NCBI GenBank assembly: GCA_934320645.1
Contig: CAKRFP010000012.1
Location: 388-64,387 of the forward strand
Origin: an uncultured Bariatricus sp.
Lineage (GTDB): Bacteria; Bacillota; Clostridia; Lachnospirales; Lachnospiraceae
Reading direction: 5' to 3'
DNA: 64,000 nt
Part shown: piece after piece, positions 2,031 to 57,131 of the stretch
Numbering within the stretch: position 1 is the first letter of the stretch
Layout of the letters: the number at the start of each line of letters is the position of its first letter
Notes under the pieces: model-generated
The model's input: the letters and a program-made list of their open reading frames with translations, nothing else
Databases searched by the model: none
Told to the model about the DNA's origin: nothing
Made by a program: the position numbers and the translations under genes

Positions 2031-2073
2031 TCAAAGCTACGAAGCAGACAATATTTGTGAAGACAGAATAATA

Positions 2074-2166
2074 AAGACAGGGGAGCCGGTGAAACGAAGG
2101 CTGAGAGGAAGCAAAAGAGCTTCGACCCTTTTACCTGATGCGGATCATGCCGCCGTAGGAAGTCAT
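2074..2166 (+). promoter_or_regulatory. TPP (THI-box) riboswitch aptamer
   Basis: GGGGAGC..GGCTGAGAG..ACCC..TACCTGATGCGGATCATGCCGCCGTAGGAA matches TPP aptamer core (CTGAGA, ACCTGAT, GGAT-ATGCC-GC-TAGGAA); thiD and cytX downstream. Confidence 0.85.
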
Positions 2167-2178
2167 AATGATTTTTTC

Positions 2179-2212: not shown

Positions 2213-2539
2213 CGTGTGCTGAGCATGGCACTAATCTTACTGGTGCAAGTCCAGTCACGGGTATTTACCGCCAAGTGTAGCGAACCACAAGTCGATTAGG
2301 TGGGTAAGATTGCTGTTATTTAGAAAGAAATTCAGCAGGAAAATCCTTCTAAATAAGTGTACTACGTGCCGAAGATGTGCACTCGCATGAAGTGGAAAAA
2401 TGCCGCAGGCGGTGCGGTCTACGCTACGTTTCGGTTGTTGCTTGACGAGCACCATTGTCGGTCGCAATGTGCCTGGCGCGGAAATATACGAAAGCATATT
2501 TTATTCAACAGAATTACAAAAAGAGAGGAAGAGAGACAA

Positions 2540-3352
2540 ATGAGAACAGCACTTACTGTTGCAGGAAGCGATTCAAGTGGAGGAGCAGGTATCCAGGCGG
2601 ATATCAAGACAATGATCAGTAACGGAGTTTATGCTATGAGCGCAATTACGGCTCTTACTGCACAGAATACAACCGGAGTTACCGGAATTATGGAGGCAAC
2701 GCCGGAATTCCTTGGAGAACAGCTGGATAATATTTTCACGGATATTTACCCGGATGCAGTAAAGATCGGAATGGTATCTTCAAGTGGTCTGATCACAATG
2801 ATCGCAGACAAATTAAAAGAATACGATGCGAAGAATATCGTAGTTGATCCGGTCATGGTAGCAACAAGTGGGGCAAGACTGATCAGTGAGGAAGCGATTG
2901 ACGCACTGAAAAGCCGCCTGCTTCCGATGGCAACCGTTCTGACTCCGAATATCCCGGAAGCAGAAGTACTTGCAGGTATGAAAATCCAGTCACAGGAAGA
3001 CATGATCAAAGCAGCAGAGGAAATCGGTACCAAATACCACTGTGCAGTTCTCTGCAAAGGCGGACACAAGCTGAATGATGCCAATGATCTGCTGTGGAGA
3101 GACGGCGGATACAAGTGGTTCTACGGAGAACGGATCGACAATCCGAATACCCACGGAACCGGATGCACCCTGTCCAGTGCGATCGCATCCAATCTGGCAA
3201 AAGGCTATGATCTGGACGAGTCTGTAGAACGTGCGAAGAAATACATTTCCGGAGCACTTGCAGCAATGCTGGATCTTGGAAAAGGCAGTGGCCCGATGAA
3301 CCATGGATTTGCGATTAAAAATGAATATACAGAAAGCAAAGTGGAGGAATAG
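2540..3352 (+). CDS. thiD: bifunctional hydroxymethylpyrimidine/phosphomethylpyrimidine kinase
   Basis: MRTALTVAGSDSSGGAGIQADIKT.. and GTGCTLSSAIA ThiD/PfkB-like motifs; ATG 2540 after GAGAGGAAGAGAG; long upstream extension of the track ORF rejected. Confidence 0.9.
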   Translation: MRTALTVAGSDSSGGAGIQADIKTMISNGVYAMSAITALTAQNTTGVTGIMEATPEFLGEQLDNIFTDIYPDAVKIGMVSSSGLITMIADKLKEYDAKNIVVDPVMVATSGARLISEEAIDALKSRLLPMATVLTPNIPEAEVLAGMKIQSQEDMIKAAEEIGTKYHCAVLCKGGHKLNDANDLLWRDGGYKWFYGERIDNPNTHGTGCTLSSAIASNLAKGYDLDESVERAKKYISGALAAMLDLGKGSGPMNHGFAIKNEYTESKVEE

Positions 3353-3356
3353 AAGC

Positions 3357-4529
3357 ATGAATGAAAAGAGAACCTCTATCTTTGAAAACGGACTGATCTG
3401 GTTTGGGGCAGGGGTATCCCTTGCCGAAATCCTGACAGGAACCTATTTTGCACCGCTTGGATTCGGAAAAGGTGTTCTGGCGATTATCCTTGGTCATATC
3501 ATTGGATGCACCATGCTTTTCCTTGCCGGAGTAATTGGTGGAAAGACCAGACGCAGTGCAATGGAAACAGTTAAAATGAGTTTTGGTGAGAAGGGCGGAG
3601 TATTCTTTTCTTTCTTAAATGTGCTGCAGCTTGTAGGCTGGACAGCGATCATGATTTATGATGGGGCACTTGCAGCAAATGGTGTTCTTCATACCGGCAG
3701 ATGGGTATGGTGTCTGGTGATCGGTGCACTGATCATCTTATGGATTGTGATCGGAATCACAAATCTTGGCAAGATCAATACGGTTGCAATGGCTGCTTTA
3801 TTTATCCTGACACTGGTGCTCAGCAGAGTGATCTTTGGTGACGGATCGGTAGCAGGCGCAGGCGGAGATGCCATGACGTTTGGTGCAGCGGTAGAGCTTT
3901 CCGTTGCCATGCCACTTTCCTGGCTGCCACTGATCAGTGACTATACAAGAGAAGCAAAAGAACCGGTAAAAGCAACCGCAGTCAGCGCTGTTGTCTATGG
4001 AGTTGTCAGCTGTTGGATGTATGTGATCGGTATGAACGCCGCGATTTACACAGGAGAGTCTGATATTGCAAATATCATGGTGAAGGCCGGACTTGGAATA
4101 GCAGGACTTCTGATCATTGTATTTTCTACCGTTACGACCACTTTCCTGGATGCTTACTCAGCAGGAATTTCGTCAGAGTCAGTATTTTCAAAAATCAATG
4201 GAAAATATGCAGCAATTGTTGTAACTGTGATCGGAATGATCGGAGCGATCGTTTATCCGATGGACAACATTACCGATTTCCTGTACCTGATCGGTTCCGT
4301 ATTCGCGCCGATGATCGCAATTCAGATTGCGGATTTCTTTATTCTGAAGAGAAAGGACAGCCTGAGGGTATCTCTGGATGTCATGAATGGTGTGATCTGG
4401 GTGATCGGTTTTATACTTTATCGTATTTTGATGAATGTGGATATTCCGCTTGGAAATACACTTCCGGATATGGTCATCACCATCGTGATCTGTATTCTTG
4501 CAAGAAAATGTATAAAGACAGAAAAATAG
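3357..4529 (+). CDS. cytX: putative hydroxymethylpyrimidine transporter CytX (NCS1 family permease)
   Basis: ~12 TM permease immediately downstream of thiD under the TPP riboswitch, the classic cytX context; ATG 3357. Confidence 0.7.
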   Translation: MNEKRTSIFENGLIWFGAGVSLAEILTGTYFAPLGFGKGVLAIILGHIIGCTMLFLAGVIGGKTRRSAMETVKMSFGEKGGVFFSFLNVLQLVGWTAIMIYDGALAANGVLHTGRWVWCLVIGALIILWIVIGITNLGKINTVAMAALFILTLVLSRVIFGDGSVAGAGGDAMTFGAAVELSVAMPLSWLPLISDYTREAKEPVKATAVSAVVYGVVSCWMYVIGMNAAIYTGESDIANIMVKAGLGIAGLLIIVFSTVTTTFLDAYSAGISSESVFSKINGKYAAIVVTVIGMIGAIVYPMDNITDFLYLIGSVFAPMIAIQIADFFILKRKDSLRVSLDVMNGVIWVIGFILYRILMNVDIPLGNTLPDMVITIVICILARKCIKTEK

Positions 4530-4536
4530 ATTTGAA

Positions 4537-4577
4537 AGAAAATGGAAATGCCGTGTTGACATTTCCGTTTTCTTTTG
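4537..4577 (+). terminator. intrinsic terminator after cytX
   Basis: AGAAAATGGAAATG / CATTTCCGTTTTCT hairpin plus T run. Confidence 0.7.
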
Positions 4578-4744
4578 ACAGAATATGTAGCGATCTACAG
4601 AATAGAGGTGGAAAAATGAATGATGATGCCTGGGAACATGGTAAAAGTTTATAAGAAAGAAGTTTTGGAGAATTTAGTTAGAGAATGGAATAAAGTAGGA
4701 TTTTTATCCTGCAAAATATATATGGGAAAAAGAGTTGGGCAGAA

Positions 4745-4949
4745 TGAAAAAAGAGTTTACGACATATGATCGGGGGAAATGTCGTAAACTCTTTTTTCTG
4801 TAATTTCATTAAAGGAGAAATGAAAATAAAAAGTATCAAAATACTGAAAACGTCTTATTTGGTTTTGATTCCCAATCAAGTGGGGCAATTGTGACTGACT
4901 AAGATGCCGCCCCACCAAGGAATTCTTATCTAGTTGTTATCTTCAAGCT
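4745..4949 (-). ncRNA. candidate sRNA, paralog 1 of 3 (longer 5' region with extra GTGGGGC/GCCCCAC hairpin)
   Basis: Minus-strand promoter TATACA (4984-4979) - 17 nt - TATTAT (4961-4956); conserved body; strong terminator hairpin 4747-4797 with T run on the minus strand. Confidence 0.4.
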
Positions 4950-5125
4950 GATATTATAATACCAAGAGGACAGGGATTTGTATATTCGCAAAAAAAACAA
5001 AAGAAAAAAAGTTAAAAAAATAAAATTGTGCAATATAACAGGTGGAAAATCAATTTGTACAAAAGGTCTTTTAAAATCTGGAAAATGATGATAAATGTTG
5101 CATAATACACAAAAATGAGCACAAA

Positions 5126-5420
5126 TCATTTATTTAAAATTTGCTGAACTTTATGGAGGTCAATTGGGTTTGCGAGGTATTTGTTTATGCCACTTTCCAT
5201 AGCCTTGATAATATCATCCGGAAAGATATTGGCAGTCAGAGCAATAATTGGAATCTCTCTGGCATAGGATGTTGGAAGGCTGCGGAATCCATCAAAATGA
5301 AAATTGTCAGAGGTATCAGCGTTTTCTTCGGTGATCGATTTCGCCGCCAAAAGGAGTATATTTTACGGCATTGGACAAAATGTTGGTAAAGATCTGCCGC
5401 AGACGTACCTGAATGTCTTT
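5126..5420 (-). pseudogene. remnant of a hybrid sensor histidine kinase (HATPase N-box fragment joined to a receiver-domain C-terminal fragment)
   Basis: Minus-strand translation gives RLRQIFTNILSNAVKYTPFGGEI (N box), then frame break, then ..IPIIALTANIFPDDIIKAMESGINKYLANPIDLHKVQQIL (receiver C-terminus); no HisKA or G boxes, no start. Confidence 0.6.
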
Positions 5421-5456
5421 AAAAATATGTGGGTAGTATCAGAAAAAATTCAGAAA

Positions 5457-5598
5457 AGAAAAAGAGCTTACGACATATGATCGGGGGAAATGTCGTAAAC
5501 TCTTTTTCCAATAATTTCATTAAAGGAGAAATGAAAATAAAAAGTATCAAAATACTGAAAACGTCTTATTCTGTTCGGTTAAGTGTTATCCTTAACTT
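5457..5598 (-). ncRNA. candidate sRNA, paralog 2 of 3
   Basis: Minus-strand promoter TATACA (5633-5628) - 17 nt - TATGAT (5610-5605); 5' hairpin GTTAAGGATAACACTTAAC, anti-SD hairpin, terminator 5459-5507. Confidence 0.45.
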
Positions 5599-5885
5599 GA
5601 ATTTATCATAGCATTTGCCGCAAGTTTTGTATATTCGCAAAAAAAACTAAAAGAAGCAAAAAGTTAAAATAAAATTGTGCAAAATAACGAGGTGTGAAAC
5701 AAGATTGACAAAAGAATGCAAAAAAAGGAAATTTTAACGGTGAAAATATATAATGTCTAATAATTAACAAAAGGTTACAGAAAGTTACAAGAAAAACTGT
5801 GATTAAAAAAACTTTTATCAAAAAGGCTGGAAAATAAGATACGATTAACGAAATGATCAGTTGTAGGATGAGAGATTTAGATAAT

Positions 5886-6026
5886 AGAAAAAGAGCTTAC
5901 GACATATAATCGGGGGAAATGTCGTAAGCTCTTTTTCTGTAATTTCATTAAAGGAGAAATGAAAATAAAAAGTATCAAAATACTGAAAACGTCTTATTTC
6001 GTTTGGTTAAGTGGTATCCTTAACTT
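5886..6026 (-). ncRNA. candidate sRNA, paralog 3 of 3
   Basis: Minus-strand promoter TTTACA (6061-6056) - 17 nt - TATTAT (6038-6033); hairpins GUUAAGGAUACCACUUAAC, AGUAU-UUUG-AUACU, UUUCAUU-UCUCCUUU-AAUGAAA; terminator 5888-5936 with C5 loop. Confidence 0.45.
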
Positions 6027-6237
6027 GCTATTATAATACCATGAGTGTGTCGATGTGTAAATTCGCAGAAAAGACAAATGTTACAAAAATGACCTCATAA
6101 AATTATGCAATATTACTAAAAATGAGGAAAAAGAGAGAAAATATGAAAGTTTTATAATCTTAAGACTTCTTATTTGAATTGCTTTTCCAATATGTTAAAA
6201 TTAGAAAAAGCAGAAAATTTTACGGATAAGGGGACAG

Positions 6238-6945
6238 ATGATGAAAGAATTTGTTGAAATGCGGGATGTCCGCAAGATTTACCGGATGGGTGAGGTTGAG
6301 ATTGCGGCAGCAGACGGAATTGATTTTCAGATAAAAAAGGGCGAATTTGCGGTTGTAGTAGGTCCAAGTGGTGCCGGAAAGACAACGGTGCTGAATATTC
6401 TTGGAGGAATGGATACCGCAACGAGTGGAGATGTCTGGATTGACGGAAAGAATATTGCAAAATATTCACCAAGACAGCTAACTTCTTATAGAAGAGATGA
6501 TATCGGTTTTGTTTTTCAGTTTTACAATCTGATTCCAAACCTGACAGCACTTGAGAATGTAGAGCTGGCACTTCAAATCTGCAAAGATCCGCTGGATGCG
6601 GAAATGGTTTTAAAAGAAGTAGGACTGGCAGATCGTATGAAGAATTTCCCGGCACAGCTTTCAGGCGGGGAGCAGCAGAGGGTATCCATTGCCCGTGCGC
6701 TGGCAAAGAATCCAAAGCTTCTTTTGTGTGATGAGCCGACAGGAGCACTGGATTATAATACCGGTAAAGCAATTCTGAAACTTTTACAGGATATGTGCCG
6801 GGAACGTGGAATGACTGTGATCCTAATCACGCACAATTCAGCGATCACACCGATGGCAGACCGGGTGATTAAGATGAAGAACGGAAAAGTCGGCAGCATG
6901 AAGCTGAATGAAAGACCGGTTCCGGTAGAGACGATTGAATGGTAG
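6238..6945 (+). CDS. ABC transporter ATP-binding protein (MacB/LolD-like)
   Basis: Walker [11 protein letters not shown]-loop, signature LSGGEQQRV, Walker B LLLCDEPT. Confidence 0.9.
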
Positions 6946-6961
6946 GTGGACGTAAGGACCG

Positions 6962-9900
6962 ATGAAGAAAAATATTTTACGCAAAGACTTTATAATGGAA
7001 ATTAAAAAGACCATGGGGCGTTTTGTGTCAATCTTTTTTATTGTGGCACTTGGCGTTGCCTTTTATTCCGGAATCCGTGCATCGGAACCGAGTATGCGGA
7101 TTACGGCAGATCAGTATTTTGATGATTCCAAGCTGATGGATCTAAAGGTAATGGGAACCATGGGACTGACCGCAGATGATATCAAAGCGATTGGAAAGGT
7201 ATCGGGAATAGAGGCTGTGGAAGGCGGCTACAGCAAGGATGTATTGTGTCCGGCAGGGGACAATGAAAAGGTTGTCCATATGATGAGTATGCAGAAGGAT
7301 TTTAACCAGGTGTCGGTTGTGGAAGGTCGGCTGCCTGAAAAAGCCGGAGAGTGTCTGGTGGATGAAGATTTCCTTAGCTATGCAGATCTGAAGGTTGGGG
7401 ATACGGTGACGTTTCATTCCGGAGACGGAGAGGCTCTGACGGATTCTCTGGTGACGGATACATACAAGATTGTCGGAATTGGGAACAGTCCGCTATATAT
7501 TTCTTTTGGAAGGGGAAGTAGTACGATCGGAACCGGAGAAATCAGTGGTTTTGTTGTAGTGGATGAATCTTCTTTTCAGATGGATGTGTTTACGGAGGCC
7601 TATGTCAGGGTAAAAGAGGCGGCAGATGAGACTGCATTTACAGATGAGTACAATGAGCTTTCGGATGCAGGAAAGGATGCGGTCAGTAAGATTGAGGAAG
7701 AACGCTGCAAAGTCCGCAGACAGGAGATCGTGGATGAGGCAAATGAAAAGCTTGCCGATTCAGAGAAGACTGTGAATGAAAAATCACAGGAGCTGGAAGA
7801 CGCGAAGAAAGAGCTGGAGAGCGGAAAGAGCAAGGCGGCAGAAGAACTGGCGAAAGCAAGACAGCAGCTTACGGATGGCGAGGCAGAGCTTGCAACTGCA
7901 AAGCAGCAGATCGCAGACGGCGAGGCTCAGCTTGCAGATGCAAAAGCACAGCTGAATGAGAAGCAGGCACAGCTGAGTTTGGCAGAGGCAGAATATGAGT
8001 CCGGGAGAGCACAGCTGGATCGGAAGGAACAGGAGCTTGCAGATGCAGAGCAGGTGTATCTGAGCAATTACGCAAAATACATGCCGATCATTACAGCTGG
8101 AAAAGCGCAGATTGCAGTCGGTAAGACGCAGATCGCAGATGGAAAAAAACAGCTGGAAGATGGAATCAGCCAGCTTACGCAGCTGAAAAGCGGATTTACG
8201 GAAATTGAAAATGGAATTAGCCAGCTTGATACCGGAATTGCAGAATTGCAGGAGCAGCTGGCAGAAGGAGAGAATCTGTATCAGGAATATGAACAGATTC
8301 CGGCAGAGGACCGAACCGCTGAACAGGAGAATTATCTGGAAAGCTGGAGCCTGGTCAGGCAGGGAATGGAAGCACAGCTTGCAGAATTGCAGAAGCAGAG
8401 AGCAGAACTTGAGGTTACCAGGAACGGACTTTTAACGCAGATGAACCAGGCGGGGATTGCATCAGAAGAGGAGTTGGATGAAAAGCTTACCAGTTTGACG
8501 GCACAGAAAGCGGAACTGGATGCAAAAGAGGAAGCACTTCTTCAGCAGGAGAAAACACTGAATGATCAGGAAGAAGAACTGTTAAGCGCAGGCAGACAGA
8601 TTACAGATGGGAAGAACCAGATTGCAGTAGCGAGAACCCAGCTTGACAGTGCAAAAGCACAGATTACAGATGGAAAAGCACAGATCCGGTCGGCATGGGC
8701 ACTTCTGGATGAAAAAGAGGGAACCTTAAATGCAGGTAAGGCGCAGATTGCATCCGGAGAACAGGAACTTGCGTCTGGCCGGAGTGAATATGAGCAGGCA
8801 GCAAAAGACGCGGAAGATCAGATTGCAGACGGACAGGCGAAGATTACAGACGGAGAAAGGCAGCTCGCGGATGCAAAACAGAAGATCGCAGATGCGAAAG
8901 CAGAGATTAAAAAGATCGAGAATCCGAAATGGTATGTGCAGACGAGGGAAGATGCACTGACGGAATATCAGGGATACGGGGATAATGCAGACCGTATGCG
9001 TTCTATTGGAAAGGTATTTCCGGTGCTGTTCTTCCTGGTGGCAGCACTGATCAGTCTGACAACTATGACACGAATGGTAGAGGAACAGAGGATCCAGATC
9101 GGAACGATGAAGGCGCTTGGTTATGGAAAAGCTGCAATCGCAGGAAAATACATTGGATATGCTTTGATCGCAACTCTGAGTGGAAGTATTTTCGGGGTAC
9201 TGGTCGGTGAAAAGATTCTGCCGTTTATCATTATTTATGCCTATATGATCCTGTATAAACATCTGCCGGCAATCCTGGTTCCGTATCATATGAGCTATGC
9301 GCTTCAGGCTTCGGTGATTGCAGTTGCATGTACACTGCTTGCGACGGTTGCGGCCTGCTATAAGGAGCTGGCAGCAGAACCGGCAGAACTGATGCGTCCG
9401 GCAGCACCAAAGCAGGGCAAACGGATTCTGCTTGAGCGGATTGGAATTATCTGGAAGCATCTAAATTTTACCTGGAAATCTACCGTGCGGAACCTGATAC
9501 GCTATAAGAAACGGTTCTTTATGACCATTTTCGGAATCGGAGGCTGTATGGCGCTGATGGTAGTTGGATTCGGGTTGAAAGACTGTATCTATGAGATTGT
9601 CAGCTTACAGTATGAGAAAGTACAGTTCTATGATGCAGCGACCTATATGAGTGATGATATTTCAGAGGAAAACAGACAGAAGATTCATGATTATCTGGAT
9701 CAGAACAGTGATGTAAAAGACTCGATCGAAGCACGTATGCAGAAGACAAAAGTAAAGTCGGCATCAGGAAGTCAGACACTTTATATGATGGTTCCGTCGG
9801 ATGATGAGCAGATTGAGAACTTTATGAGTTTTCACAGCAGAACCAGGAAAGATGAAAAATACTCGCTGAAAAAAGATGAGGTTATTCTTACGGAAAAGAT

Positions 9901-10609
9901 GGCAACGCTTCTGAAAGTAAAAGTTGGGGATGAACTTACAATAGTAGATGAAGAACGTGGCAATCAGACGGTTACGATCGGGGCAATCTGTGAAAATTAT
10001 ATGCGTCATTTTCTGTATCTGTCACCGGAGAAATACGAAGAACTATATGGAAAACAGGCAGAATACAATACGATCATTTACAGTGTAAAAGATGGAAAAG
10101 ATGAACAGATTGAGAAGATTGGAACAGAGCTCCTGACATTCGATGGAGTTCTGAATGTAAGCTATACCAGAAGTATTGAAGATCAGCTGGATGATATGCT
10201 TCGCAGTCTGAATCTGGTTATCATAGTGCTGATCGTGTCTGCGGGAATGCTTGCATTTGTAGTACTGTACAACCTGAATAATATCAATATTACAGAACGT
10301 CAGAGGGAACTTGCAACACTGAAAGTTCTGGGATTTTATGACGGAGAGGTTGCTTCTTATGTGTATAGGGAGAATATCCTGCTGACGATCATAGGATCAG
10401 TTGTCGGTATGGGACTTGGTAATATCCTGCACCGTTATATCATCCTGACTGTTGAGGTGGAAGAAGCGATGTTCGGACGTCAGATACACTGGCAGAGTTA
10501 TCTGTACAGCTTCTTGTTTACTGCAGCATTTTCTTTATTTGTAAACTGGGTAATGTTCTACAAGCTGAAGAAGATCGATATGGTGGAATCTTTGAAGAGC
10601 GTGGAGTAA
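6962..10609 (+). CDS. FtsX/MacB-family ABC permease, 1215 aa, two FtsX modules with a ~420-aa coiled-coil insertion in the first extracytoplasmic domain
   Basis: N-terminal TM, MacB-type periplasmic domain, repetitive A/Q/E/K/D-rich heptad region (aa ~230-655), then FtsX TM bundle, second ECD and second FtsX bundle; adjacent to the ATPase. Confidence 0.85.
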   Translation: MKKNILRKDFIMEIKKTMGRFVSIFFIVALGVAFYSGIRASEPSMRITADQYFDDSKLMDLKVMGTMGLTADDIKAIGKVSGIEAVEGGYSKDVLCPAGDNEKVVHMMSMQKDFNQVSVVEGRLPEKAGECLVDEDFLSYADLKVGDTVTFHSGDGEALTDSLVTDTYKIVGIGNSPLYISFGRGSSTIGTGEISGFVVVDESSFQMDVFTEAYVRVKEAADETAFTDEYNELSDAGKDAVSKIEEERCKVRRQEIVDEANEKLADSEKTVNEKSQELEDAKKELESGKSKAAEELAKARQQLTDGEAELATAKQQIADGEAQLADAKAQLNEKQAQLSLAEAEYESGRAQLDRKEQELADAEQVYLSNYAKYMPIITAGKAQIAVGKTQIADGKKQLEDGISQLTQLKSGFTEIENGISQLDTGIAELQEQLAEGENLYQEYEQIPAEDRTAEQENYLESWSLVRQGMEAQLAELQKQRAELEVTRNGLLTQMNQAGIASEEELDEKLTSLTAQKAELDAKEEALLQQEKTLNDQEEELLSAGRQITDGKNQIAVARTQLDSAKAQITDGKAQIRSAWALLDEKEGTLNAGKAQIASGEQELASGRSEYEQAAKDAEDQIADGQAKITDGERQLADAKQKIADAKAEIKKIENPKWYVQTREDALTEYQGYGDNADRMRSIGKVFPVLFFLVAALISLTTMTRMVEEQRIQIGTMKALGYGKAAIAGKYIGYALIATLSGSIFGVLVGEKILPFIIIYAYMILYKHLPAILVPYHMSYALQASVIAVACTLLATVAACYKELAAEPAELMRPAAPKQGKRILLERIGIIWKHLNFTWKSTVRNLIRYKKRFFMTIFGIGGCMALMVVGFGLKDCIYEIVSLQYEKVQFYDAATYMSDDISEENRQKIHDYLDQNSDVKDSIEARMQKTKVKSASGSQTLYMMVPSDDEQIENFMSFHSRTRKDEKYSLKKDEVILTEKMATLLKVKVGDELTIVDEERGNQTVTIGAICENYMRHFLYLSPEKYEELYGKQAEYNTIIYSVKDGKDEQIEKIGTELLTFDGVLNVSYTRSIEDQLDDMLRSLNLVIIVLIVSAGMLAFVVLYNLNNINITERQRELATLKVLGFYDGEVASYVYRENILLTIIGSVVGMGLGNILHRYIILTVEVEEAMFGRQIHWQSYLYSFLFTAAFSLFVNWVMFYKLKKIDMVESLKSVE

Positions 10610-55604: not shown

Positions 55605-55754
55605 AGGATTTTGAACTTGCTCCCCGCCGGACATGAGGAAGGAGCGATTTACGAAGTAAATCAGCGGATTCCGAATGGACGGAGGATTGCGAGAGCAGCA
55701 ACGCTGCGGAGCAATCCGTAATATTATCAAAGTAGTGGGGGAAATTCAAAGATC

Positions 55755-55803: not shown

Positions 55804-56136
55804 ATGCAGATAGATTATGAAAAATATGCCCGTATATTCAAAGTGATGTCGGATCCGAAACGTCTGAAGATCATCGACATGTTATCTGGAGGAGAATTAT
55901 GCGCCTGCAAGATCCTGGAGGAATTTCACATCACACAGCCAACTTTATCACATGATATGAAGCTGATGTGTGATCTGGGAATTGTAAAGGCACGCAAAGA
56001 AGGAAAATGGATGCAGTATTCTCTGGATCTGGATGTGATGAATGAGGTTTACAAGACGGTTGGGCGGCTGATGATCCCGGGAGATTATGCAGGGCTTTTA
56101 AATTGCAATTGTAATACAGAAAAGGAAGAAAAATAA
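55804..56136 (+). CDS. ArsR/SmtB family metalloregulator
   Basis: DPKRLKIIDML..GELCACKILE (ELCxC metal/metalloid site), HTH ITQPTLSHDMKLM. Confidence 0.9.
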   Translation: MQIDYEKYARIFKVMSDPKRLKIIDMLSGGELCACKILEEFHITQPTLSHDMKLMCDLGIVKARKEGKWMQYSLDLDVMNEVYKTVGRLMIPGDYAGLLNCNCNTEKEEK

Positions 56137-56198
56137 GTTGCAGCTGCAGCAGAGCAAATCAGGGTGCAGTTGCAGTATAGAAAAAGGAGAAATGAATC

Positions 56199-57131
56199 AT
56201 GAGTAAGATTAAATTGTATTTTCTGACGGGATTTCTGGGATCCGGCAAGACGACGATCCTCCGGAATCTGCTGGAAAATATGGAAGGAACAAAGGTTGGA
56301 GTGATCCAGAATGAACTGGGAAAGATCAGTATTGATGGAACCGTGCTTCAGAATAATGATATCCAGATGGTAGAACTGAACCGGGGATCGATTTTCTGCA
56401 GCTGTCTGAGATTATCCTTTGTGGATGCGCTGGTTCAGATGTCCAGAAAAGGTCTGGAATACGTGTTTGTAGAGAGCTCAGGGTTTGGAGATCCGTCCAA
56501 TGCGGAAGAAATTCTTGCGGCGACGGAAGTGATGGCTCCGGATGTATATGATTTCAAAGGATGTATCTGTCTGGTGGACTGCTATAATTTTCTGGATCAG
56601 GTCGGAGATTCAGAGACGATCGACCGGCAGCTTAAGCACTGCAATCTTGCAGTTCTGACGAAAATTGATCTGGTAGATGAGAACCGGATTGAGAAGGTGA
56701 AAGAGAAAGTGCGTGAGATTAATCCGGTCTGTCCGATCACGGAGAGTGCCAATGGAAATATTGACCGTTCGTTTTATGATATGGATCTGATGCTGTACAA
56801 ATGGGCAGAATGTGAAGATACCACGAATTCATCGAAAAATAAACCAAAAACATTTTCCATGGATTTTACGGGAGAGATCCAGAAGGAAAAGCTGGAAACC
56901 TTTCTTGCAAGGATTGAACCGGATGTATTTCGTGTGAAGGGTTTCTTTAAAGTGGAAAAAGAAGGATGGGAAAAAGTTGATGTAGTCGGAAAGAAACGGG
57001 ATTATGCGCCTTACGAACCACAGCCGAAGTCTCAGCTTGTCTTTATTTCCAAAATCGGAATCGCACTGATCCGGGAAATCGCGGCGGCGTGGGAGGAATG
57101 TGTGGGACTTCCTATGAAACTCAACAATTAA
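56199..57131 (+). CDS. CobW/COG0523 family GTPase (metallochaperone-like)
   Basis: P-loop GFLGSGKTT, ESSG, TKIDL; the usual GCxCC motif is replaced by SIFCSC. Confidence 0.8.
   Translation: MSKIKLYFLTGFLGSGKTTILRNLLENMEGTKVGVIQNELGKISIDGTVLQNNDIQMVELNRGSIFCSCLRLSFVDALVQMSRKGLEYVFVESSGFGDPSNAEEILAATEVMAPDVYDFKGCICLVDCYNFLDQVGDSETIDRQLKHCNLAVLTKIDLVDENRIEKVKEKVREINPVCPITESANGNIDRSFYDMDLMLYKWAECEDTTNSSKNKPKTFSMDFTGEIQKEKLETFLARIEPDVFRVKGFFKVEKEGWEKVDVVGKKRDYAPYEPQPKSQLVFISKIGIALIREIAAAWEECVGLPMKLNN

Follow-up and report, generated by a model that had tools for sequence, protein, structure and literature searches.

We found that a 64,000-nt stretch of DNA from an uncultured Bariatricus sp. (contig CAKRFP010000012.1, positions 388 to 64,387; called the window below, and the basis for all coordinates) contains three tandem units that are best read as stand-alone small RNA (sRNA) genes on the minus strand, a reading in which we have high confidence. 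The units lie in a gap of ~1.7 kb between a cytX-like permease gene, which ends at 4529, and the gene for the ATPase of an ABC exporter, which starts at 6238. With their promoters they span 4742-5039, 5456-5688, and 5885-6116 on the minus strand (copies 1, 2, and 3). The three share an identical 54-nt core, a 17-20-bp hairpin with a loop that contains a run of five C residues, and a minus-strand promoter. We think it somewhat probable that these are three independently transcribed sibling sRNA genes whose loops silence mRNAs through their ribosome-binding sites. For seed pairing as the mechanism, which we propose by analogy with characterized sRNAs, we consider the chances to be about even.

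The repetition is extensive. Repeat finding revealed two families of direct repeats with three copies each, one (D1) at 4740-4864, 5451-5575, and 5879-6003 and the other (D2) at 4935-5039, 5584-5688, and 6012-6116. Three exact copies of a 55-nt string, TTTCATTAAAGGAGAAATGAAAATAAAAAGTATCAAAATACTGAAAACGTCTTAT, lie at 4804, 5515, and 5943, and 100 shuffles gave none. The hairpin-with-loop pattern ACGACATNTNATCGGGGGAAATGTCGT (ACGACAT-N-ATCGGGGGAA-ATGTCGT) also has three occurrences and none in shuffles. A covariance model (R1) found exactly three copies in the 64 kb, with 131-137 bits on the minus strand versus 33-42 bits on the plus strand. The plus-strand scores are as high as they are because the terminator is palindromic.

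The RNAs are built around a common 3' module consisting of a hairpin H2 (AGUAU/AUACU), an anti-Shine-Dalgarno (anti-SD) hairpin H3 (UUUCAUU-UCUCCUUU-AAUGAAA), and an intrinsic terminator with the loop UUUCCCCCGAU(C/U)A. The core, GACGUUUUCAGUAUUUUGAUACUUUUUAUUUUCAUUUCUCCUUUAAUGAAAUUA (4801-4854, 5512-5565, and 5940-5993, minus strand), makes up the 5'-most 54 nt of the module and includes the anti-SD loop UCUCCUUU (plus-strand AAAGGAGA; 4811-4818, 5522-5529, and 5950-5957). The terminator of copy 1 (4746-4798, minus strand) has a 20-bp stem with arms at 4746-4765 and 4779-4798 that are 100% complementary and a 13-nt loop, UUUCCCCCGAUCA. Those of copies 2 and 3, also on the minus strand, are at 5458-5508 (arms 5458-5476 and 5490-5508) and 5881-5943 (arms 5881-5905 and 5919-5943). 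The run of five C residues in the terminator loop appears on the plus strand as five G residues at 4772-4776, 5483-5487, and 5912-5916. There is an A run on one side of the stem and a U run on the other, so the terminator is bidirectional. On the minus strand 3' of the terminator there is no gene for the RNA to lead into, and the flanking genes are convergent.

The part of the RNA upstream of the common module comes in two forms. Copy 1 (4742-4949, minus strand, ~208 nt; 136.8 bits with model R1) has the long form. A single-stranded 5' stretch, CUUGAAGAUAAC, is followed by an extra GGGGC/GCCCC domain, H2, H3, and the terminator, with a predicted fold of -54.5 kcal/mol (z = -4.75). Copy 2 (5456-5598, minus strand, ~143 nt; 135.1 bits) and copy 3 (5885-6026, minus strand, ~142 nt; 131.4 bits), which adjoins the ABC operon, have the short form. 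In the consensus fold of eight short-form units, applied to copy 2, a 5' hairpin GUUAAG/CUUAAC precedes H2, H3, and the terminator. Copy 3 is predicted to fold into four hairpins (-42.2 kcal/mol, z = -8.9). Measured from the putative start to the U run, the bodies are 208, 143, and 142 nt, with 5' ends placed by the position of the -10 alone (7 nt past the -10 for copy 1).

Each unit has its own promoter of the sigma-70 type, with the consensus -35 T(T/A)TACA, a 17-nt spacer, and an extended -10, TGnTAT(T/G)AT. In the promoter region of copy 1 (4950-5039, minus strand) the -35 is TATACA (4984-4979) and the -10 is TATTAT (4961-4956); in that of copy 2 (5599-5688, minus strand) they are TATACA (5633-5628) and TATGAT (5610-5605); and in that of copy 3 (6027-6116, minus strand) TTTACA (6061-6056) and TATTAT (6038-6033). 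All three have the TG upstream of the -10 and the 17-nt spacer. In an alignment of the promoters of 13 units from this and other species (A3), the minus-strand -35 (T[TA]TAC) and TGnTAT[TG]ATAAT are conserved, and the 17-nt spacer varies in sequence while its length is fixed.

Conservation continues upstream of the promoter, and the duplicated unit takes in ~90 nt upstream of the start. In the promoter alignment a conserved T-rich element (TTTTGCGAAT; TTTGTCTTTTTTGCGAAT) directly abuts the -35 on its upstream side. A related second motif, TTTTGCACAATTTT, is found ~42 bp upstream of the T-rich proximal element. In copy 1 the proximal element is TTTGTTTTTTTTGCGAAT and the distal motif is TTGCACAATTTTAT. 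Read on the plus strand, the distal motif is AATTGTGCAA(T/A)ATAAC in copies 1 and 2 (5024-5039 and 5673-5688) and AATTATGCAATATTAC in copy 3 (6100-6115). This conserved upstream stretch suggests that the copies may share a transcription factor. In copy 3 and in species with a single copy, the distal motif has the sRNA promoter on one side and the divergent promoter of the ABC operon (TTGAAT-16-TAAAAT, 6174-6201, plus strand) on the other; because of this placement, co-regulation of the sRNA and the exporter is plausible. Scanning the window for a regulon of the upstream motif gave 4 matches versus 1.65 expected, and two of the four were the units themselves.

Much of this layout had been described in an earlier reading of the same DNA that was made from the letters and a list of open reading frames (ORFs), with no database searches (the sequence-only reading). 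It had reported a block of ~115 bp in three near-identical copies, which is repeat family D1, and the three minus-strand promoters at the positions given above, to which the promoter scan added the TG 5' of each -10. It had also placed after each promoter a body of 140-205 nt, close to the lengths given here, and then a terminator hairpin and U run, and the stems are present. The hairpin UUUCAUU-loop-AAUGAAA with its anti-SD loop, the C-rich terminator loop, and the two versions of the upstream motif were all where it had put them.

The same unit is present in other bacteria. Contigs from human-gut metagenomes with an identical ATPase all keep three copies. A loop-based pattern scan of one genome per species gave seven positive genomes: Coprococcus (now Allocoprococcus) comes MSK.16.63, with three copies, and, with one copy each, Bariatricus massiliensis, three other Bariatricus, a Coprococcus sp. 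metagenome-assembled genome (MAG), and a Lachnospiraceae MAG. A scan of metagenomes with a 23-mer from the core, in which no loop was required, found 115 loci, nearly all of them variants of C. comes, plus a further species (L055). The 23-mer is invariant by construction in this metagenome set and is not so in the loop-pattern or synteny-derived sets. Three more lineages, with one copy each (L133/L134, L135/L136, and L137), were reached through orthologs of the neighboring ATPase (88-93% identity). In contrast, more distant ABC homologs (L139 and L140, ~67-72% identity) had no sRNA upstream, including by profile HMM search. A search for homologs had been proposed in the sequence-only reading, and it recovered the unit in at least nine species-level lineages of the C. 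comes/Bariatricus clade. Because the many C. comes sequences hardly differ from one another, only about nine lineages count as independent evidence.

The two forms and the copy number vary among these lineages. Window copies 2 and 3 have the short form (~142 nt), as do the single copies of L013, L014, L133, and L055. L055 has another 7-bp stem, GUGUCUU/AAGACAC, instead of the 5' hairpin GUUAAG/CUUAAC. The long form (~207-217 nt, and 280 nt in B. massiliensis) is that of window copy 1 and of the copies in Bariatricus, L135, and L137, and copy 1 is the ortholog of the single long-form copy in Bariatricus spp. The triplication is found in C. comes only. At the protein level the ATPases of the window (6238-6945) and of C. 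comes MSK.16.63 (L011, 2235-2939) are 98.7% identical, but they have only 67% of the conserved-residue codons in common, which places the window in a clearly separate lineage within the C. comes complex.

The linkage of the unit to the exporter is strict. In every positive lineage the unit is upstream of, and divergent from, an orthologous ABC operon (83-99% identity for the ATPase and 53-85% for the permease), and the gene on the other flank differs by lineage (cytX, gatB, degV, and others). In the window this operon (6238-10609, plus strand) encodes the ATPase (6238-6945) and a 1215-aa permease (6962-10609) of the MacB type with a MacB_PCD domain (MacB periplasmic core domain), two FtsX stretches, and a coiled coil of ~430 residues (about 230-660). 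The predicted sRNA family is thus a clade-restricted element of the C. comes/Bariatricus group that is tied to one operon.

We made several side observations on the units and their partner operon. The MacB-type permease is unusual, and between species it is far more variable than the ATPase. Some metagenome contigs have chimeric mixes of the flanks of copies 1, 2, and 3, which could reflect recombination between the tandem copies or artefacts of assembly. In a C. comes-like lineage, an IS110-family transposase gene (L134, 603-1778, minus strand) is inserted beside the single sRNA copy. In the window, a decayed fragment of a hybrid histidine kinase/receiver gene (~5126-5420, minus strand; Response_reg, E = 9e-5; HATPase_c, E = 7e-5) sits between copies 1 and 2, and because of it these copies are 711 nt apart instead of 494 nt. 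The fragment is without a counterpart in C. comes MSK.16.63.

Comparison of the homologs revealed which parts of the unit are constrained. Two of the 54 core columns vary among 16 units from at least nine lineages, each in a single sequence (alignment A4). Both loops are kept in every homolog, including those from sets that were not selected for loops. The terminator behaves as an RNA helix. Over the 16 units and 17 scored pairs, 99.1-99.5% of the cells are paired, and six of the pairs have double-sided changes (GC/CG, AU/GC, and CG/UA). In control comparisons, none of 500 column shuffles reached the observed values and slid registers were 38-50% paired. In the extra domain of the long form, the outer stem UUCCUU/AAGGAA also covaries (UA/AU, CG/UA, and UA/CG). 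The sequence-only reading had wanted the hairpins checked for covariation; it is there in the terminator and the extra stem of the long form, to which it is confined, and not in H2 and H3, which are invariant.

The terminator also distinguishes the strands. Among the first 13 units, 17 cells at three stem positions are G·U in the minus-strand RNA (and so C·A on the plus strand), and 1 cell is the opposite. Three units added later have G·U pairs at two more stem positions. Promoter conservation, terminator covariation, the G·U asymmetry, and the retention of both loops all support paralogous sRNAs on the minus strand, the reading that had been put first from the letters alone.

How might these RNAs work? 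In the model that we favor, each sRNA would be transcribed from its own promoter, end at its own intrinsic terminator, and display two similar C/U-rich hairpin loops, CAUUUCUCCUUU and CAUUUCCCCCGA, complementary to a G-rich ribosome-binding site followed by AUG. Both loops are predicted to be unpaired (P = 0.93-0.99 in five of the six RNAs tested; 0.97 for the CCCCC of the terminator loop). The two putative seed hairpins are of like build, with a stem ending in CAU and then UUC(U/C)CC. In the predicted structures CAU-UUCUCCUUU is in the 8-nt apical loop and CAU-UUCCCCCGA is in the 13-nt terminator loop. In addition, CUCCUUU of the anti-SD loop matches the 3' end of 16S rRNA. CAU-UUCUCCUUU would act as an anti-start-codon plus anti-SD sequence. 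The loops would pair in trans with the G-rich ribosome-binding regions of target mRNAs, and the initiation of translation would be blocked. Having three copies may provide dosage or differential control. A shared regulator, for example one that responds to envelope stress, may act on the common upstream region, as the strictly conserved divergent arrangement with the exporter suggests.

Several points weigh against this model. Neither H2 nor the anti-SD hairpin H3 ever varies, so the pairing within them is predicted and not demonstrated. As judged from the alignment, the total invariance of these stems exceeds the need of a simple structural role. One stem position, in C. comes copy 3, favors the plus strand. 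All of the homologs are from one clade and were retrieved by exact words or as close orthologs, and diverged members would be missed for this reason. The start region of the exporter ATPase, in 7 lineages, gave pairing energies with the two candidate seeds of -11 to -16 kcal/mol, ~2-3 standard deviations from the window background, which is typical of an SD site; it is not an outlier and is no better a partner than other SD sites (-14 to -16 kcal/mol). The best non-self match in a seed scan of the window was the ribosome-binding site of a COG0523 GTPase gene (56177-56190, plus strand), AAAGGAGAAATGAA, a 14-nt perfect complement of the anti-SD hairpin (-19.1 kcal/mol). This site is not an energy outlier, as several sites in the window reach ~-18 kcal/mol, and we regard it as a lead only. 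The scan, limited to the 64-kb window, gave no convincing mRNA target.

It is possible, although we think it rather unlikely, that the minus-strand RNA is not a pairing sRNA and is instead bound by a protein, serves as a decoy (a mimic of the 3' end of 16S rRNA, CUCCUUU, or a sponge), or is a dedicated regulator of the exporter. The 54 nt, including both arms of H2 and of H3, vary at two columns in at least nine lineages with no compensatory change, which suggests sequence-specific recognition that extends past a short seed. An RNA recognized in this way by a protein or by the ribosome would fit, because nearly every nucleotide of the core is fixed, in the stems as well, and one loop copies CUCCUUU of 16S rRNA. 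The strict linkage to the MacB-type operon and the lack of a convincing target within 64 kb point the same way. However, known base-pairing sRNAs of Firmicutes have this anatomy, with two exposed C/U-rich loops, a seed in the terminator loop, and multiple copies (PMC4132741, PMC3091779), and the target search covered 64 kb of the genome only. A sponge of the CsrA type is unlikely because there is just one GGA-type motif.

It is also possible that the sRNA and the MacB-type exporter make up one conserved functional module and that the RNA is not a generic repressor. For example, it might imitate an anti-SD sequence or act as a decoy, adjusting translation upon induction of the exporter, with a threefold amplification in C. 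comes. We consider this idea quite improbable.

The plus strand of the units needs separate consideration. As the sequence-only reading had noted, it contains three micro-ORFs of 24-26 aa (4820-4894, 5531-5611, and 5959-6036), which encode MKIKSIKILKTSY plus tails. We judge these micro-ORFs to be probable by-products of the RNA core and not genes, against the proposal that a conserved 12-13-aa peptide, MKIKSIKILKTS(Y), is functional. In this proposal, which we consider very improbable, the peptide would be, for example, a leader or signaling peptide tied to the adjoining exporter, and the minus-strand RNA would be its antisense regulator. It is true that the first 12 codons and their AAAGGAGAA-ATG context are kept in 16 of 16 units and that two substitutions at the edge of the core are synonymous (ACG to ACA and TCT to TCA). 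However, ten degenerate codons of the micro-ORF have no synonymous change in eleven comparisons, although neighboring synonymous sites are saturated. In the adjacent ATPase gene, codons for conserved residues have stayed the same in just 46-67% of cases, and by this measure ten unchanged codons have a probability of ~5e-4 to 2e-2 per lineage. In addition, L137 has a non-synonymous change, T to A in the amino-acid sequence.

The context of the micro-ORFs is also poor for translation. The GGAG is 2 nt from the AUG, and Bacillus-type ribosomes prefer ~7-9 nt between the Shine-Dalgarno sequence and the start. The terminator hairpin and a U run stand immediately 5' of the micro-ORF on the plus strand; beyond the hairpin the upstream sequence is unconserved, and the micro-ORF has no conserved plus-strand promoter 5' of it. 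The G·U asymmetry points to the other strand, and none of the three micro-ORFs had a Pfam hit, nor a match to a Pfam toxin family at E up to 1. The minus strand does not have a conserved ORF either; the frame through the terminator is broken by 0-3-nt indels among units. An apparent SD-ATG micro-ORF can thus mirror an anti-SD seed, which calls for caution in the annotation of small proteins. Separately, several metagenome assemblies annotate a 49-aa ORF on the plus strand (4620-4769) as a gene. This ORF has its stop codon within the terminator loop of copy 1 and no Pfam or NCBIfam match, and it is probably spurious.

Less probable again is an element that functions as DNA, that is, a bidirectional terminator and palindromic operators (TTTCATT-N8-AATGAAA and AGTAT-N4-ATACT) that control the ABC operon. 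The hairpins are indeed palindromic in DNA, the terminator has A and U runs on its two sides, and the unit always adjoins the operon. In contrast, the conserved promoter points into the unit, the unit bears RNA signatures (compensatory changes and the G·U asymmetry), copies 1 and 2 of C. comes lie 0.6-1.3 kb from the ABC promoter, and the bases of loops and spacers are as invariant as the arms.

Least probable of all is a set of tandem type I toxin-antitoxin loci, in which the 24-26-aa peptides would be membrane toxins checked by antisense RNA. The sequence-only reading had offered this as its alternative, to be favored if homologs kept the plus-strand peptide and not the hairpins. We found the opposite: other species keep the hairpins and not the peptide tails, and the toxin reading is largely refuted. 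The C. comes ORFs do encode peptides that are basic at the N-terminus and hydrophobic in the tail, and the minus-strand RNA gene overlaps the micro-ORF completely, but antisense overlap by itself does not define a toxin-antitoxin locus. The micro-ORF stops after 12-13 codons in seven units from other species. Where it is longer the tails are unrelated (LVLIPNQVGQL, SVRLSVILNLNLS, SFVSFLKTLL, and, in L135, KLSASSYVGQNYD) and not always hydrophobic, and in short-form units in which it continues, the stop codon lies within the minus-strand -10 box. A toxin promoter, good ribosome-binding geometry, and Pfam toxin hits are all lacking, as described above.

Two known structured RNAs are present elsewhere in the window, and they were the only matches to Rfam at gathering score. 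A TPP riboswitch (RF00059, 67.9 bits; 2069-2178, plus strand) is 5' of a thiD-like kinase gene (2357-3352) and the cytX-like permease gene (3303-4529). A Clostridiales-1 RNA (RF01699, 112 bits; 55560-55726, plus strand) is between a permease gene (54566-55567) and a gene for an ArsR-type regulator (55804-56136), after which comes the COG0523 GTPase gene (56199-57131). Both RNAs are outside the sRNA locus. Within 4400-6400, Rfam searched at E up to 10 gave only spurious matches to miRNA, snoRNA, and terminator-like models, as did the long form of B. massiliensis. Full-text searches of the literature turned up no account of an RNA like this from C. comes or Lachnospiraceae, and Coprococcus is absent from the main text of a catalogue of structured RNAs from the gut microbiome (bioRxiv 10.1101/2020.03.31.018887).

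The family is well delimited. Both ends of the RNA are predicted, there are two candidate seeds and one candidate regulatory site, the copy number varies naturally (one versus three), and the partner operon is invariant. Most of what is known about sRNAs comes from Bacillales, streptococci, and Bacteroides, and to our knowledge the regulatory RNAs of abundant Gram-positive gut commensals such as Lachnospiraceae are almost uncharted. The host is a culturable and prevalent species of the human gut, and the family could be an entry point to the sRNA biology of Lachnospiraceae. It also raises the question of what keeps an RNA gene constantly beside a MacB-type exporter with so large a coiled coil.

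A pairing of this kind has a formal parallel in enterobacteria. In MicF-ompC and OxyS-oxyR, an sRNA gene is kept divergent from one neighbor and shares an upstream regulatory region with it. The units described here are likewise divergent from a fixed neighbor with a common upstream region. The enterobacterial sRNAs are Hfq-dependent and Gram-negative, whereas here the neighbor is a MacB-type exporter and the pairing is one of gene arrangement.

Among sRNAs of Gram-positive bacteria, there are similarities to RoxS/RsaE (RF01820) and other Bacillota sRNAs with C-rich motifs, in the very high conservation and in loops whose C-rich motifs would pair with a G-rich ribosome-binding site. RoxS/RsaE has another architecture and is from another clade, and the sRNA gene here is present three times and is linked to an operon for an ABC exporter. 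The RF01820 model had no gathering-score match in the whole window, and over 4400-6400, with E values up to 10 allowed, neither it nor the models for the cia-dependent small RNAs (csRNAs) of Streptococcus matched. With no Rfam match, the likeness to RoxS/RsaE goes no further than analogy.

The csRNAs are highly similar paralogous sRNAs with anti-SD and anti-AUG (CAU) sequences and are thought to block the initiation of translation (PMC3091779). The putative sRNAs here are also paralogs with an anti-SD sequence and CAU, and both candidate seeds start with CAU and continue with a pyrimidine run. In the csRNAs, the sequence directed against the translation initiation region is unpaired between two stem-loops; here, it is in hairpin loops and the CAU is in the stem. 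The CiaR direct repeat, NTTAAG-N5-TTTAAG, had no match in the window with 1 mismatch allowed and is not in the promoter alignment.

LhrC1-5 of Listeria monocytogenes also has similarities to these units. The LhrC sRNAs are encoded by multicopy genes, and their C/U-rich loop seeds, one of them in the terminator loop, bind Shine-Dalgarno regions; the five copies are co-regulated by an envelope-stress two-component system and have conserved residues upstream of their promoters (PMC4132741). As here, the sibling copies are partly in tandem, each has its own promoter and terminator, and the hairpin and terminator loops are C/U-rich. There is no homology in sequence or structure, and LhrC belongs to Bacillales and not Lachnospirales. 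The LhrC model (RF00616) scored 21.6 bits at 4727-4809 (minus strand; E = 3) versus a gathering score of 110, and the locus is not a member of that family. As for motifs, all three copies have UCCC in the terminator loop (UUUCCCCCG), and the other loop, UCUCCUUU, is without it. The units here have a full anti-SD loop (UCUCCUUU) together with the loop of five C residues, and they have an extra 5' hairpin or a 65-nt domain. Based on these comparisons, the three copies represent a predicted new, uncatalogued family of sRNAs of the LhrC and csRNA type that is a member of neither.

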